Positions 12,195 to 55,722 of a stretch of 64,000 nt of DNA are shown piece by piece. The notes under the pieces were generated by a model. That model was not told the DNA's origin. It was given only the letters and a program-made list of their open reading frames with translations, and did no database searches. Made by a program: the position numbers and the translations under genes. The stretch comes from Escherichia coli (lineage in GTDB: Bacteria; Pseudomonadota; Gammaproteobacteria; Enterobacterales; Enterobacteriaceae): the NCBI RefSeq assembly GCF_044647545.1, contig NZ_CP172818.1; one strand, given 5' to 3'. Position 1 is the stretch's first letter, and the number at the start of each line of letters is the position of its first letter.

Positions 12195-12782
12195 ATGTAT
12201 CGGATAGTTCTGGGGAAAGTTTCGACCTTAAGCGCAGCTCCTCTGCCACCGGGTTTACGCGAGCAAGCACCGCAAGGTCCACGACGCGAACGCTGGCTGG
12301 CGGGGCGTGCATTGCTTTCGCACACGCTTTCCCCGCTACCGGAGATCATCTATGGCGAACAAGGCAAACCTGCATTCGCGCCGGAAACGCCGCTATGGTT
12401 CAACTTAAGCCATAGCGGTGACGATATCGCCCTGCTGTTGAGCGATGAAGGCGAAGTCGGCTGCGATATCGAAGTGATTCGCCCGCGCGCCAACTGGCGC
12501 TGGCTGGCGAACGCCGTATTCAGCCTTGGGGAACATGCCGAGATGGACGCCGTGCATCCTGATCAGCAACTGGAAATGTTCTGGCGCATCTGGACGCGCA
12601 AAGAAGCCATCGTTAAACAGCGTGGCGGCAGCGCCTGGCAAATCGTCAGCGTAGACAGCACCTATAACTCCTCGCTGTCAGTCAGCCATTGTCAGCTAGA
12701 AAATTTAAGCCTGGCGATCTGCACCCCTACCCCCTTTACGCTCACCGCCGACAGTGTGCAATGGATCGATTCAGTTAACTGA
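12195..12782 (+). CDS. acpT: 4'-phosphopantetheinyl transferase AcpT
   Basis: 195 aa; PPTase-like motifs (FNLSHSGD, WTRKEA). Confidence 0.9.
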   Translation: MYRIVLGKVSTLSAAPLPPGLREQAPQGPRRERWLAGRALLSHTLSPLPEIIYGEQGKPAFAPETPLWFNLSHSGDDIALLLSDEGEVGCDIEVIRPRANWRWLANAVFSLGEHAEMDAVHPDQQLEMFWRIWTRKEAIVKQRGGSAWQIVSVDSTYNSSLSVSHCQLENLSLAICTPTPFTLTADSVQWIDSVN

Positions 12783-12828
12783 TCCGCCCACCCGACTGCC
12801 CATCTATTGATCCAGAACAGGTAATCAG

Positions 12829-12856
12829 TATGACGAATACTTAAAATCGTCATACT
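12829..12856 (+). promoter_or_regulatory. NikR operator GTATGA-N16-TCATAC in the nikA promoter
   Basis: Exact match to the two-half-site NikR operator pattern 37 nt upstream of nikA; possible FNR-like half site TTGAT at 12808. Confidence 0.85.
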
Positions 12857-12892
12857 TATTTCCGCCATCTATTTTAATCCATTGGGGTTACC

Positions 12893-14467
12893 ATGTTCTC
12901 TACACTCCGCCGCACTCTATTTGCGCTGCTGGCTTGTGCGTCTTTTATCGTCCATGCCGCTGCACCAGATGAAATCACCACCGCCTGGCCGGTGAATGTC
13001 GGGCCACTAAACCCGCACCTTTACACGCCTAACCAAATGTTCGCCCAGAGCATGGTTTATGAACCACTGGTGAAATATCAGGCAGACGGTTCGGTGATCC
13101 CGTGGCTGGCAAAAAGCTGGACCCATTCAGAAGATGGCAAAACCTGGACCTTCACCCTGCGTGATGATGTGAAATTCTCTAACGGTGAACCGTTTGATGC
13201 AGAGGCCGCGGCAGAAAACTTCCGCGCTGTGCTCGACAACCGTCAACGTCACGCCTGGCTGGAGCTGGCAAACCAGATTGTTGATGTCAAAGCTCTCAGT
13301 AAAACCGAGCTGCAAATCACCCTGAAAAGCGCCTACTACCCTTTCCTGCAAGAACTGGCCCTGCCCCGTCCTTTCCGCTTTATCGCCCCCTCGCAGTTTA
13401 AAAACCATGAAACCATGAATGGGATTAAAGCGCCGATTGGCACCGGGCCGTGGGTTTTGCAGGAATCGAAACTGAATCAGTACGATGTCTTCGTCCGTAA
13501 CGAAAACTACTGGGGCGAAAAGCCGGCGATTAAGAAGATCACTTTTAACGTCATCCCAGACCCGACTACCCGCGCAGTAGCGTTTGAAACCGGCGATATC
13601 GATCTACTATACGGTAATGAAGGGCTATTACCGCTCGATACCTTCGCCCGCTTTAGCCAGAACTCGGCTTACCACACCCAACTGTCACAGCCGATCGAAA
13701 CCGTGATGCTGGCGCTCAATACTGCCAAAGCCCCCACCAACGAGCTGGCAGTCCGTGAAGCTCTTAATTACGCGGTAAACAAAAAATCGCTGATCGATAA
13801 CGCGTTGTATGGCACCCAGCAGGTCGCCGACACCCTGTTTGCCCCTTCCGTGCCCTATGCCAATCTCGGCCTGAAACCGCGCCAGTACGATCCGCAGAAA
13901 GCAAAAGCGTTGCTGGAACAAGCAGGCTGGACGCTGCCCGCAGGCAAAGACATCCGCGAGAAAAATGGTCAGCCGCTGCGCATTGAACTGTCGTTCATCG
14001 GCACCGATGCGTTAAGCAAATCAATGGCCGAAATCATTCAGGCTGATATGCGCCAGATTGGCGCGGATGTCACGCTGATCGGCGAAGAAGAGAGCAGTAT
14101 CTATGCTCGTCAGCGCGACGGTCGTTTTGGCATGATTTTCCACCGTACCTGGGGCGCGCCATACGATCCACACGCCTTCCTGAGTTCAATGCGCGTACCG
14201 TCGCACGCTGACTTCCAGGCACAGCAAGGTTTAGCCGACAAGCCACTGATTGATAAAGAGATTGGCGAAGTGCTGGCGACACACGACGAAACACAACGTC
14301 AGGCACTGTATCGCGACATTCTGACCCGTCTGCATAACGAGGCGGTTTATCTGCCCATCAGCTATATCTCAATGATGGTGGTTTCAAAACCGGAACTGGG
14401 TAACATCCCCTACGCGCCGATCGCCACCGAAATCCCGTTCGAACAGATTAAACCGGTGAAACCTTAA
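12893..14467 (+). CDS. nikA: Nickel ABC transporter periplasmic binding protein NikA
   Basis: 524 aa with signal peptide; first gene of nik operon. Confidence 0.96.
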
Positions 14468-15407
14468 TGTTGCGTTATGTATTACGCCGCTTTCTGCTGC
14501 TGATCCCGATGGTGCTCGCCGCCTCGGTGATCATTTTTCTGATGCTGCGCCTCGGCACCGGCGACCCGGCGCTCGATTATCTGCGTCTGTCTAACCTGCC
14601 GCCGACGCCGGAAATGCTGGCTTCTACCCGCACCATGCTGGGGCTGGATCAGCCGTTGTACGTGCAGTACGGAACCTGGTTGTGGAAAGCGCTGCATCTT
14701 GACTTTGGTATCTCATTCGCCAGCCAACGCCCGGTGCTGGACGATATGCTGACCTTCCTGCCCGCCACGCTGGAGCTGGCGGGTGCGGCGCTGGTATTAA
14801 TTCTGCTCACTTCCGTGCCGCTCGGCATCTGGGCGGCGCGCCATCGCGACCGCCTGCCGGATTTCGCCGTGCGTTTTATCGCGTTTCTTGGCGTGTCGAT
14901 GCCTAACTTCTGGTTGGCGTTTTTACTGGTGATGGCATTTTCAGTGTATCTGCAATGGCTGCCCGCGATGGGTTACGGCGGCTGGCAGCACATCATTTTG
15001 CCTGCGGTTTCCATCGCTTTTATGTCGCTGGCGATTAACGCGCGTCTGCTGCGCGCCAGTATGCTGGACGTCGCCGGTCAGCGTCATGTGACCTGGGCGC
15101 GACTGCGCGGCCTGAACGACAAACAGACCGAACGCCGCCACATCCTGCGCAATGCCTCGCTGCCGATGATCACCGCCGTGGGGATGCACATTGGCGAACT
15201 GATTGGCGGGACGATGATTATCGAAAACATCTTTGCCTGGCCGGGCGTCGGGCGCTATGCGGTGTCGGCGATTTTTAACCGTGACTATCCAGTGATCCAA
15301 TGCTTTACGCTGATGATGGTGGTGGTTTTTGTGGTCTGTAATTTGATTGTCGATTTGCTCAACGCCGCGCTGGACCCGCGTATTCGTCGTCATGAAGGAG
15401 CGCACGC

Positions 15408-15411
<4 letters not shown>
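14467..15411 (+). CDS. nikB: Nickel ABC transporter permease NikB
   Basis: 314 aa; start overlaps nikA stop. Confidence 0.96.
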
Positions 15412-18235
<2,824 letters not shown>

Positions 18236-18278
18236 CTATTAAAATTAAGTTCGTACGTCTGTAAAAAAGGATTTTACG

Positions 18279-21200
18279 ATGAGCGGAAAACCGGCGGCGC
18301 GTCAGGGCGACATGACGCAGTATGGCGGTAGCATTGTTCAGGGTTCTGCCGGGGTGCGTATTGGTGCCCCCACCGGCGTGGCCTGTTCAGTGTGCCCCGG
18401 CGGGGTGACGTCCGGTCATCCGGTCAATCCGCTGCTGGGTGCAAAGGTCCTTCCCGGCGAAACCGACCTTGCCCTGCCCGCCCCGCTGCCGTTCATCCTC
18501 TCCCGCACCTACAGCAGTTACCGGACAAAAACGTCCGCGCCGGTGGGGAGCCTCGGCCCCGGCTGGAAAATGCCTGCGGATATCCGCTTACAGCTGCGCG
18601 ATAACACACTGATACTCAGTGATAACGGCGGCAGAAGCCTGTATTTTGAGCACCTGTTTCCCGGTGAGGACGGTTACAGCCGCAGCGAGTCACTCTGGCT
18701 GGTGCGCGGCGGCGTGGCGAAACTGGATGAAGGTCACCGGCTGGCCGCACTCTGGCAGGCGCTGCCGGAAGAGCTTCGCCTGAGTCCGCATCGTTATCTG
18801 GCGACGAACAGTCCACAGGGGCCGTGGTGGGTACTCGGCTGGTGTGAGCGGGTGCCGGAGGCGGATGAGGTGCTGCCTGCGCCGCTGCCGCCGTACCGGG
18901 TACTGACCGGGCTGGTGGACCGCTTCGGGCGCACACAGACGCTCCACCGCGAAGCCGCCGGTGAATTCAGCGGCGAAATCACCGGCGTGACGGATGGTGC
19001 CGGGCGTCACTTCCGGCTGGTACTGACCACGCAGGCGCTGCGGGCAGAAGAGGCCCGGCAGCAGGCCATTTCCGGCGGGACGGAACCGTCCGCTTTTCCT
19101 GATACCCTGCCGGGTTACACCGAATATGGCCGGGACAACGGTATCCGCCTGTCCGCCGTGTGGCTGACGCACGACCCGGAATATCCGGAGAATTTACCTG
19201 CCGCGCCGCTGGTGCGCTATGGCTGGACGCCACGCGGCGAACTGGCGGTGGTGTATGACCGCAGCAATACACAGGTGCGCAGCTTTACTTACGATGATAA
19301 ATACCGGGGCCGGATGGTGGCGCACCGTCACACGGGCCGGCCGGAAATCCGTTACCGTTACGACAGTGACGGGCGGGTGACAGAACAGCTAAACCCGGCA
19401 GGCTTAAGCTACACCTATCTGTTATGAGCAAAACCGCATCACCATCACCGACAGCCTGAACCGCCGTGAAGTCCTGCATACGCAGGCGAAGGCGGCCTGA
19501 AGCGGGTGGTGAAAAAGGAACACGCGGACGGCAGCGTCACGCAGAGTCAGTTTGACGCGGTGGGCAGGCTTAAGACACAGACGGATGCCGCAGGCCGGAC
19601 AACAGAATACAGCCCGGATGTGGTGACGGGCCTCATCACGCGCATCACCACGCCGGATGGCAGGGCATCGGCGTTTTACTATAACCACCACAGCCAGTTA
19701 ACGTCAGCCACCGGGCCTGACGGGCTGGAAATACGCCGGGAATATGATGAATCCGGCCGTCTGATTCAGGAAACCGCCCCTGACGGCGATATCACCCGCT
19801 ACCGTTATGATAATCCACACAGTGACTTCCCCTGCGCAACGGAAGATGCCACCGGCAGCCGGAAAACCATGACGTGGAGCCGTTACGGTCAGTTGCTGAG
19901 CTTCACCGACTGTTCCGGCTACCAGACCCGTTATGACCATGACCGCTTCGGGCAGATGACGGCGGTGCACCGCGAGGAAGGCCTGAGCCAGTGCCGCGCA
20001 TACGACAGCCGTGGACAGTTAATTGCCGTGAAAGACACGCAGGGCCATGAAACGCGGTATGAATACAACATCGCCGGTGACCTGACCGCCGTCATTGCCC
20101 CGGACGGCAGCAGAAACGGGACACAGTACGATGCGTGGGGAAAGGCCATCCGTACCACGCAGGGCGGGCTGACCCGCAGTATGGAATACGATGCTGCAGG
20201 ACGGGTCATCCGCCTGACAAACGAAAACGGCAGCCACACCACCTTCCGTTACGATGTACTCGACCGGCTGATACAGGAAACCGGCTTTGACGGCCGCACA
20301 CAGCGTTACCACCACGACCTGACCGGCAAACTTATCCGCAGCGAGGATGAGGGGCTGGTCACCCACTGGCACTATGACGAAGCAGACCGCATCACGCAGC
20401 GAACGGTGAATGGTGAAACCGCAGAACAGTGGCGGTACGACGAACGCGGCTGGCTGACACAAATCAGCCATCTCAGCGAAGGGCACCGGGTGACGGTGCA
20501 TTACGGGTATGATGAGAAAGGCCGCCTGACCGGTGAGCGCCAGACGGTGCATCATCCGCAGACGGAAGCACTGCTCTGGCAGCATGAGACCAGACATGCG
20601 TACAACGCGCAGGGGCTGGCGAACCGCTGTATACCGGACAACCTGCCCGCCGTGGAATGGCTGACTTATGGCAGTGGTTACCTGGCAGGGATGAAACTCG
20701 GCGACACACCGCTGGTGGAGTACACCCGCGACCGCCTGCACCGGGAAACGCTGCGCAGCTTCGGCCGTTATGAACTCACCACCGCTTATACCCCTGCCGG
20801 GCAGTTACAGAGCCAGCACCTGAACAGCCTGCAGTATGACCGCGATTACACCTGGAACGACAACGGCGAACTCATTCGCATCAGCAGCCCGCGCCAGACC
20901 CGGAGTTACAGCTACAGCGACTCCGGCAGGCTGACCGGCGTTCACACCACCGCAGCGAACCTGGATATCCGCATCCCGTATGCCACGGACCCGGCAGGTA
21001 ACCGCCTGCCCGACCCGGAGCTGCACCCGGACAGCACCCTCAGCATGTGGCCGGATAACCGTATCGCCCGTGACGCGCACTATCTTTACCGGTATGACCG
21101 TCACGGCAGGCTGACGGAGAAAACCGACCTCATCCCGGAAGGGGTTATCCGCACGGATGATGAGCGGACTCACCGGTACCATTACGACAGCCGGCACCGG

Positions 21201-22514
21201 CTGGTGCACTACACGCGGACACAATATGCAGAGCCGCTGGTCGAAAGTCGCTATCTTTACGACCCGCTGGGCCGCAGGGTGGCAAAACGGGTGTGGCGGC
21301 GTGAACGGGACCTGACGGGCTGGATGTCGCTGTCACGGAAACCGGAAGTGACCTGGTACGGCTGGGACGGCGACCGCCTGACCACGATACAGAACGACAG
21401 AACCCGCATCCAGACGGTTTATCAGCCGGGGAGCTTCACACCACTCATCAGGGTCGAAACCGCCACCGGTGAGCAGGCGAAAACGCAGCGCCGCAGCCTG
21501 GCGGATGCGCTTCAGCAGTCCGGCGGCGAAGACGGTGGCAGTGTGGTGTTCCCGCCGGTGCTGGTGCAGATGCTCGACCGGCTGGAAAGTGAAATCCTTA
21601 CTGACCGGGTGAGTGAGGAAAGCCGCCGCTGGCTGGCATCGTGCGGCCTGACGGTGGCGCAGATGCAAAACCAGATGGACCCGGTGTACACGCCGGCGAG
21701 AAAAATCCACCTGTACCACTGCGACCATCGCGGCCTGCCGCTGGCGCTTGTCAGCACGGAAGGGGCAACAGAATGGTGCGCAGAATACGATGAGTGGGGC
21801 AACCTGCTGAATGAAGAGAACCCGCACCAGCTGCAACAGCTTATCCGCCTGCCGGGTCAGCAGTATGATGAGGAGTCAGGCCTGTATTACAACCGCCACC
21901 GCTATTATGACCCGCTGCAGGGGCGGTATATCACTCAGGATCCGATTGGGCTGAAGGGGGGATGGAACCTGTATGGATATCAATTGAATCCGATATCAGA
22001 CATCGACCCCCTGGGTTTATCTATGTGGGAGGATGCAAAATCGGGGGCATGTACTAATGGTCTTTGCGGCACACTATCCGCTATGATAGGTCCAGATAAG
22101 TTTGATTCTATAGATAGCACCGCATATGACGCCTTAAATAAAATAAATAGCCAATCTATTTGCGAAGATAAAGAGTTCGCTGGTTTAATATGTAAGGATA
22201 ATAGTGGCAGATATTTCTCAACAGCACCTAACCGAGGGGAAAGAAAAGGATCATATCCATTCAATAGCCCTTGCCCTAATGGTACTGAGAAAGTATCAGC
22301 TTATCATACTCATGGTGCAGATAGTCATGGAGAATATTGGGACGAAATATTTTCAGGCAAAGATGAGAAAATAGTTAAAAGTAAAGATAACAATATCAAG
22401 TCATTTTATTTGGGCACGCCCAGTGGTAATTTTAAAGCAATAGATAACCACGGGAAGGAAATAACAAACGGAAAAGGATTACCTAATGTCTGCAGAGTTC
22501 ATGGTAATATGTAA
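18279..22514 (+). pseudogene. rhsB: Rhs core protein with C-terminal toxin tip (RhsB-like), interrupted by a compensated frameshift at about 19422..19484
   Basis: Two same-frame ORFs (18279..19427, 19506..22514) with YD-repeat content, PxxxxDPxGL core end at about 21945..22020 and an AT-rich tip; two in-frame TGA codons between them. Confidence 0.85.
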
Positions 22515-50653: not shown

Positions 50654-51874
50654 ATGTCAATTGACTTTACCCCAGGTATGATAAATACATATCACGGCGA
50701 TATTTATAACCGCACAACAGATACCGACAATGCTAAAACACCAGACACACCGATGTGGCCTTGTGATAATCAGGAAGAACAGCAACCCATTAATTTTTCA
50801 TTGTCTGAAGAAGGATATAACGCTGAACAATTTGATTTAGCGCAACAACAACTCCAACAAATTAATGCGTGCCACACGAACACCACATATACAAATGCAG
50901 ACTACTCAAAAGTTGTGGCTCAACTTGTAAAACTTATTAATAACATTGAAACGATAAGTTCGACACCACTTACGCAACAGACACAATCAATACTTAATCA
51001 GATTAATAACATTAGATACGAAAAGAATAAAAACTCTGAATCTAAAATCATTGTTGTCTTTAATCCTAAGCCCAATAAGCCAATCATAACTAAAATTCTC
51101 GTAGAAGAGGGAATACCAGTAAGATTCAGTGTCCAAACCGTTTCTTCCGAAAATAAAAATTTTTCTGGGCAACGAACTGATTTACCAACTGATATAAAAG
51201 ATATTCAACGCTTGTACCAAAAAATGACAAGGTTGTATATTGAGCACAGTGAAAATGAAAACAGGATGAAAGTCTTTGCTGGAACCAACTTTATTGATTT
51301 CAATATGACAGGACAGGACCTGTCCGGGTTCGTTCTAACCTTGTCAAGGTTTTATTTCGAAGATTTACTTAATGTAAACTTCACTGACGCAAATTTTGAT
51401 ACTATTTTTTCACATAAGGAAAACCCCATCACAAATTTACATAAAGATGAACAATATGTTGACAAACAAATCAATGGTTTATTTTCAACATTATTAACCA
51501 TTAATGACAACTCTTTAAGAGCAAAAGCGGAAATTGTTTCGACAATAATAGAATTATTAGAAACCAGGGTAAACAATCTTTCATACAACGACATAATAAA
51601 ATATCAGCAAGAATTCCAAAAAGAATGTTACAAGCAAGTTAAAGATTTTACAACACCCTCTCGATACAATAGAATTAAAAAATGGGCACAAATGTCTGAA
51701 TATCAATTCGAAATATTTCAACACGATACGTTTCATCTTAAAAAAATGTCATACGCACCTTATTTAAAGAGATCGCTACCTGATGAAAAAACTATAAATT
51801 ATGGGGTGGAAATAGAAACACCAACTGGCAAAAGAATTCGCTTATCAAATCATTACCAGAATATAATCCCATAA
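50654..51874 (+). CDS. yhiS: Uncharacterized protein YhiS-like with pentapeptide-repeat segment (uninterrupted)
   Basis: 406 aa AT-rich ORF; no IS element inside. Confidence 0.75.
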
Positions 51875-55394: not shown

Positions 55395-55722
55395 GATCAA
55401 TTTTTTATGATCAAGCTTTTTTAACCGCCATTAACACAATAAACAGGGATTATGGAATCTTATCCAGCATCAGAAAACCATCCTGTGTTTATGGCTATCC
55501 CCCACAACCTCATCACAAAACGTTGTCGTTAACAGTGATAATTTTCTCTTCTCTTTGCTCTGCAAGCCGCGATATCTCCGGGTTCTCAGCTTTTTCCCGC
55601 GCTGAAATTTAATCGGTAACAAGAACGTTCACGACGAAGCATCTTGATAAAAATCAAAAATAAATACGCTTGTAACGCCGTGCGTATTGAATCGACGGTT
55701 GTATTTCATATATAACTCAAAT

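Follow-up and report, generated by a model that had tools for sequence, protein, structure and literature searches.

The 110-bp spacer between acpT and nikA is the nikA promoter of E. coli, that is, the promoter of the nickel-uptake operon nikABCDE(R), and is the same as nikAp of E. coli K-12. It occupies positions 12783..12892 of the 64-kb stretch of DNA analyzed, here called the window, and was read directly in 12400..13200. With a probability of about 0.93 we assign it as a sigma-70 promoter of nikABCDE(R) on which FNR and NikR act in tandem, FNR by a class II mechanism and NikR by occlusion. Control of nikA by FNR and NikR is already known, and the K-12 version was found unchanged here.

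The nikA control region and the nik operon

Between the last base of acpT and the nikA ATG, the spacer was 100% identical to that of E. coli K-12 MG1655. Its length, its neighbours acpT and nikA, the NikR operator and the FNR motif were all the same as in K-12 nikAp, which is reportedly described in Wu 1989, Navarro 1993, de Pina 1999, Chivers and Sauer 2000 and Rowe 2005. A 301-bp query around the FNR site matched 5425 of 5426 complete E. coli genomes, with acpT and nikA as the annotated genes, and the 110-bp spacer was at least 99% identical in 5198 of the 5426. In three less identical E. coli variants of the spacer (97.3 to 99.1% identity) the FNR 14-mer, the NikR half sites and the -10 hexamer were all unchanged; the substitutions were located 5' of the FNR motif, at the -35 position or in the operator spacer.

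While the control region showed no difference from K-12, coding differences and a 7-codon 3' extension of nikR were found downstream of it in the window. The genes of the nickel ABC transporter, nikABCDE (12893..17808), are collinear with K-12, and the proteins differ by 0 to 8 amino acids each without internal stops. All five genes are intact and lie on the plus strand: nikA (12893..14467), nikB (14467..15411), nikC (15408..16241), nikD (16241..17005) and nikE (17002..17808). The nik coding genes differ from K-12 at approximately 3 to 5% of the nucleotides (78 of 1575 bases in nikA), the adjoining 110-bp spacer at none.

The gene for the cognate repressor, nikR (17813..18235, plus strand), encodes residues 1 to 133 identical to K-12. 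At its 3' end (18212..18235) the K-12 stop codon TGA is replaced by TGG, and seven more codons (WFRKKRY) give a protein of 140 instead of 133 amino acids. This extension was caused by deletion or replacement of about 140 bp of the spacer between nikR and rhs. The junction (18150..18290) was found at a coverage of at least 80% in none of the 5426 complete E. coli genomes.

Since the nikA control region is unchanged, the knowledge from K-12 should transfer to this strain, namely anaerobic activation by FNR, repression by NikR with nickel and repression by NarL with nitrate. Beyond annotation this is of little importance.

The FNR site upstream of nikA

The FNR binding site TTGATCCAGAACAG is located at 12807..12820 (no strand assigned) with its centre at 12813.5, which is position -40.5 relative to the start of transcription and corresponds to a class II placement. 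The left half TTGAT (12807..12811) is perfect and is followed by CCAG, and the right half AACAG (12816..12820) matches at 3 of 5 positions, with C12 and A13 kept. Overall, 8 of the 10 positions of TTGAT-N4-ATCAA are matched. An earlier note on this DNA had recorded TTGAT followed 4 nt later by AACAG and had judged it a weak FNR match with a poor right half. This description holds, but the left half lies at 12807..12811 and not at 12808..12812. A GATC, the Dam methylation site, is present at 12809..12812 inside the left half; the spacer contains no other GATC. A full-text literature search for the 14-mer TTGATCCAGAACAG returned no paper.

Taken alone, the motif is near chance level, because matches to TTGAT-N4-ATCAA with two mismatches are common in the window (51 versus 34.5 expected). 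The earlier note had proposed matrix scoring as a check, with a low score speaking against FNR. We therefore scored the region with a symmetrised matrix derived from the 63 ChIP-confirmed sites whose sequences Myers et al. 2013 give in their Table S6 (PMC3688515). The nikA site reached 8.7 bits (exact p 1.3e-4). The corresponding ln p of -8.95 can be compared only approximately with the value of -9.55 published for the best motif beneath the nikA peak (PMC3688515), because the sites in our matrix all lie above the threshold of Myers et al. and bias it towards strong sites. In the 64-kb window the nikA site ranked 16th. Between 12700 and 12900 it was the sole candidate, the runner-up scoring 0.44 bits, and about 0.013 sites of this score are expected in a 110-bp spacer. 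The nikA motif falls short of the precision-recall threshold of -10.75 used by Myers et al. for genome-wide prediction, and with its published ln p of -9.55 it surpasses the motif in 71% of 208 scored FNR ChIP peaks, for which the median is -7.47 (PMC3688515). The matrix score of the nikA site is moderate, not low.

The occupancy of this site in vivo has been documented for the identical sequence of K-12. Myers et al. 2013 placed nikABCDE in Category 1, the operons directly activated by FNR (PMC3688515). Their Table 1 gives for nikABCDE a ChIP-seq summit at 3,611,605 (U00096.2 numbering), one motif at -40.5, and increased sigma-70 occupancy as well as increased expression without oxygen; no earlier direct evidence for FNR binding was noted there for nikA (PMC3688515). 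The FNR peak was called by all four peak finders and was observed by both ChIP-chip and ChIP-seq (PMC3688515). In order to place these data on the window, the U00096.2 numbering was calibrated against NC_000913.3 with three motifs of Table S6, which yielded an offset of 1977 and revealed that each listed coordinate denotes the motif's first base. In calibrated coordinates the FNR summit falls on position 12808, inside the left half site and no more than 6 bp away from the centre of the site. For sigma-70, the anaerobic-specific ChIP-seq peak at 3,611,651 (U00096.2) falls on 12854; its signal was 68.7 under aerobic and 1896.9 under anaerobic conditions (PMC3688515).

The expression data point in the same direction. 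The operon nikABCDER counted as FNR-activated in each of the three transcriptome sets, its expression dropped in an fnr mutant, and aerobic and anaerobic expression of nikA differed approximately 33-fold, as for nirB (PMC3688515). A second report describes the nikA promoter as repressed by NikR with rising nickel and as Fnr-dependent under anaerobic conditions (PMC9434800). In the papers that were read, no footprint or site-mutation study of the nikA FNR site was found. The earlier note had cautiously called the motif a possible half-site consistent with anaerobic activation, and had named missing anaerobic induction as an argument against it. Induction is documented, in the published data, for the identical K-12 sequence, and the FNR peak of Myers et al. 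backs the assignment (PMC3688515), which is supported more strongly than had been supposed. The "possible half-site" is a real FNR site, and to call this asymmetric full site a "half-site" is fair.

One could argue that TTGAT-N4-AACAG is a chance match and that FNR acts on nikA indirectly, through another regulator or through the nickel demand caused by hydrogenase synthesis. The near-chance frequency of two-mismatch matches, the 15 sites in the window that outscore the nikA site and the published threshold that it does not reach would fit this explanation. We nevertheless consider it very improbable, since the ChIP-seq summit of FNR is at most 6 bp away from the middle of the site, the nikA site alone scores positive under the FNR peak, its distance from the conserved -10 hexamer is that of a class II site, and all 70 orthologous promoters carry it at the same position with completely diverged flanks.

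At class II FNR promoters such as those of narG, nirB, dmsA, pykA, yfiD and focA the site is found at -40.5 or -41.5, and at nikA it is likewise located about 41 bp 5' of the start. A poor -35, a good -10 and anaerobic-specific occupancy by sigma-70 are common to nikA and these promoters. The nikA site differs from those of narG and nirB in being asymmetric and much weaker (ln p -9.55 versus -13.3 and -16.5; PMC3688515). Moreover, unlike these class II promoters, nikA has the operator of a metal-dependent repressor packed directly downstream.

The NikR operator, the core promoter and the proposed mechanism

The NikR operator GTATGA-N16-TCATAC, an exact dyad with the full sequence GTATGACGAATACTTAAAATCGTCATAC, is located at 12828..12855 (no strand assigned), approximately from -26 to +2, and its first base lies 65 bp 5' of the nikA ATG. 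It was the single exact match in the 64-kb window, where shuffled sequences gave an expectation of 0.01 per window. Allowing up to two mismatches, we found no further NikR operator in the window apart from one unrelated, chance-level match at 21863. The exact NikR site recorded in the earlier note is thus present, but at 12828..12855 instead of 12829..12856. The 28-bp dyad corresponds to the published NikR operator (PMC7055735). The dyad of an E. coli-type NikR operator is found here in exact form together with an intact cognate nikR gene, and every defining feature of such an operator that is open to in silico testing is present. Nickel-dependent binding and repression by NikR are known from the literature on the identical K-12 sequence (PMC9434800, PMC7055735). 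A ribbon-helix-helix NikR tetramer and a widely spaced dyad at the promoter of a nickel gene are shared with the NikR operators of Brucella nikA and of Helicobacter pylori ureA, nixA and further genes (PMC7055735). The NikR of H. pylori differs in that its consensus is looser and its regulon larger.

The operator overlaps the core promoter. The -10 hexamer TAAAAT (12842..12847, plus strand) matches TATAAT at 5 of 6 positions and lies in the operator spacer, at -12 to -7 from the probable start. The start of transcription was placed at A12854 (plus strand), because the motif centre at 12813.5 plus the 40.5 bp given in Table 1 of Myers et al. leads to this base; the sigma-70 peak coincides with it. 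Both the -10 hexamer and this putative start are inside the operator, the start being in the right NikR half site. The sequence AGGTAA at the -35 position (12819..12824, plus strand) matches TTGACA at only 2 of 6 positions, which suggests that there is effectively no -35 element. A putative Shine-Dalgarno-like GGGG (12884..12887, plus strand) precedes the nikA ATG by 5 nt. The centre of the FNR site is located 28.5 bp before the -10 hexamer. With the start taken from the literature and the sigma-70 peak, the site has the placement near -41.5, replacing a weak -35, that characterizes class II activation. TTGATC was considered as a -35 hexamer and rejected, since it is 29 bp away from the only conserved -10.

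A scan for consensus sigma-70 promoters and terminators in 12600..13000 yielded neither a promoter nor a terminator. This result is not evidence against a promoter, because it is expected for an activator-dependent one. The combination of a poor -35 and a negative generic scan is typical of activator-dependent promoters.

Class II activation is established for FNR in general. For nikA we propose the following mechanism. Under anaerobic conditions, dimeric [4Fe-4S] FNR would bind to the asymmetric site TTGATCCAGAACAG, centred 40.5 bp 5' of the start. FNR would stand in for the missing -35 and recruit RNA polymerase by the class II mechanism, with contacts that its position suggests. When nickel is sufficient, the Ni-NikR tetramer would occupy GTATGA-N16-TCATAC from about -26 to +2. 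Since the operator holds the -10 hexamer and the start, polymerase would be excluded regardless of FNR; the overlap of operator and core promoter points to such an occlusion. The net outcome would be import of nickel only in the absence of oxygen, when hydrogenases are synthesized, and when nickel is scarce. Three elements of this scheme are inferred: the precise base at which transcription starts, the contacts of class II type, and occlusion as the way in which NikR represses.

Comparison across nikA loci and further motifs

The nikA promoters of other species were compared in a NikA scan with one genome per species, which yielded 80 loci, 70 from Enterobacterales and 10 from non-enterobacterial organisms. 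The Enterobacterales span Escherichia, Citrobacter, Klebsiella, Raoultella, Kosakonia, Atlantibacter, Edwardsiella, Biostraticola, Samsonia and Arsenophonus. In all 70 of their nikA loci an FNR-type site begins exactly 21 bp before the NikR operator; the locus of Escherichia sp. E1V33 (L002) agrees with this offset after allowing for an insertion in its 5'UTR. In the 69 loci that were scanned with the matrix this site had the highest score within the 260 bp preceding nikA. When 69 distinct sequences were aligned without gaps, near-maximal information was seen for TTGATCC, A13, both NikR half sites and TAnAAT, and almost none in the columns flanking this block. The columns at the -35 position were not conserved across genera. 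Because the sequences are related by descent, the argument rests on the conserved block against random flanks. The FNR site, the NikR operator and the -10 hexamer thus form one rigid block throughout the Enterobacterales, a comparison that is new here. Its fixed geometry independently supports the ChIP-based assignment of a motif that is too weak for matrix scanning alone.

The conserved TTGATCC could also be read mainly by a factor other than FNR, be it another CRP/FNR-family protein, NarL or NarP, or it could serve as a -35 element for a different -10 or as a Dam-dependent GATC switch. The conservation indeed reaches into the FNR spacer (CC, then AG), which is not strongly read by FNR, the left half contains a GATC, and nitrate or NarL control of nikA has been reported without a defined site. 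Against this, TTGAT is an FNR-type and not a CRP-type half site (TGTGA), 29 bp would separate a -35 element at this place from the only -10 that is conserved, and many real FNR sites carry a C at motif position 6 (45 of 126 in the matrix set). Furthermore, FNR cross-links at nikA in vivo and expression falls in the fnr mutant. We therefore regard a non-FNR reader as highly unlikely and retain FNR as the factor acting at this site. The C at position 6 is conserved in most of the orthologous promoters.

The two halves of the FNR site have fared differently. Among the Enterobacterales the left half stays perfect, while in the right half only A13 is fixed and the variants AACAG, AACAC, AACAA, CTTAC, GTTAC and CTCAA occur. 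In some lineages the right half is near consensus, as in Arsenophonus (TTGATCCAGCTCAA, 16.7 bits) and Atlantibacter (TTGATCCAGAACAA, 15.1 bits). In Klebsiella and Raoultella a T takes the place of the contact C12; therefore, the second half site may contribute little. This pattern is behind the idea that the asymmetry has been selected and is not a decayed consensus, so that the weak right half would make nik transcription require a high level of active FNR. Abutting the -35 region, it could under this idea also leave room for a second input, for example NarL. We consider the idea unlikely.

Outside the Enterobacterales the arrangement was different. A NikR dyad with at most one mismatch was found in 6 of the 10 loci (Consotaella, a proteobacterial MAG, two Rhizobium, Fulvimarina and Halomonas), and a recognisable dyad was absent from the other four (Stappia, Desulfovibrio, Paenibacillus and Domibacillus). 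Unlike E. coli nikA, none of the 10 promoters fetched carried an FNR-type site at the 21-bp offset. The alphaproteobacterial and Halomonas loci have for the most part retained a NikR operator, without the FNR-type site before it, so that control of the distant nikA loci is mostly by NikR alone.

In two Escherichia lineages the nikA 5' leader contains an insertion between the NikR operator and the ATG, and the FNR/NikR/-10 block is intact in both. The insertion of Escherichia sp. E1V33 (L002:4531..4960) comprises about 430 bp and is rich in tandem repeats. That of Escherichia sp. MOD1-EC7003 (L004:4860..4980) comprises about 112 bp and is presumably an ERIC/IRU-like element, which we take from its appearance.

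A match to the NarL heptamer TACYYMT, TACTTAT, is present at 12853..12859 (plus strand) and overlaps the putative start as well as the right NikR half site. The window contains 0.45 such heptamers per kb, which gives an expectation of about 0.05 in 110 bp, and TACTTAT is only partly conserved in the alignment of other genera. nikA has been cited second-hand as NarL-controlled and nitrate-repressed with no site defined, and the site predicted in the MotifAdjuster paper belongs to torC, not to nikA. TACTTAT may, speculatively, be a weak candidate for repression by nitrate and NarL; a NarL site at 12853 is not claimed, as a lone heptamer carries too little information.

Two stronger FNR matches elsewhere in the window were recorded. 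The top matrix score of 18.3 bits belongs to TTGATAAAAATCAA at 55644..55657, an exact FNR consensus. It lies in the divergent spacer between chuA and chuT, about 115 bp 5' of chuT-chuW(hutW)-hutX, an operon that includes an anaerobic radical-SAM haem-degrading enzyme. An identification with a site inside gadE of K-12 was rejected on account of this location. The chuA-chuT region was found in 2236 of the 5426 complete E. coli genomes. The paper on this subject that was examined for chuW and FNR does not mention direct control of chuTWXY by FNR, only control of chuS by FnrS. The second-best match, TTGATTTAGCGCAA at 50832..50845 (13.8 bits), is located inside a coding sequence annotated as "hypothetical protein" upstream of slp-dctR and is the same 14-mer as the hcp entry in Table S6 of Myers et al. 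(PMC3688515).
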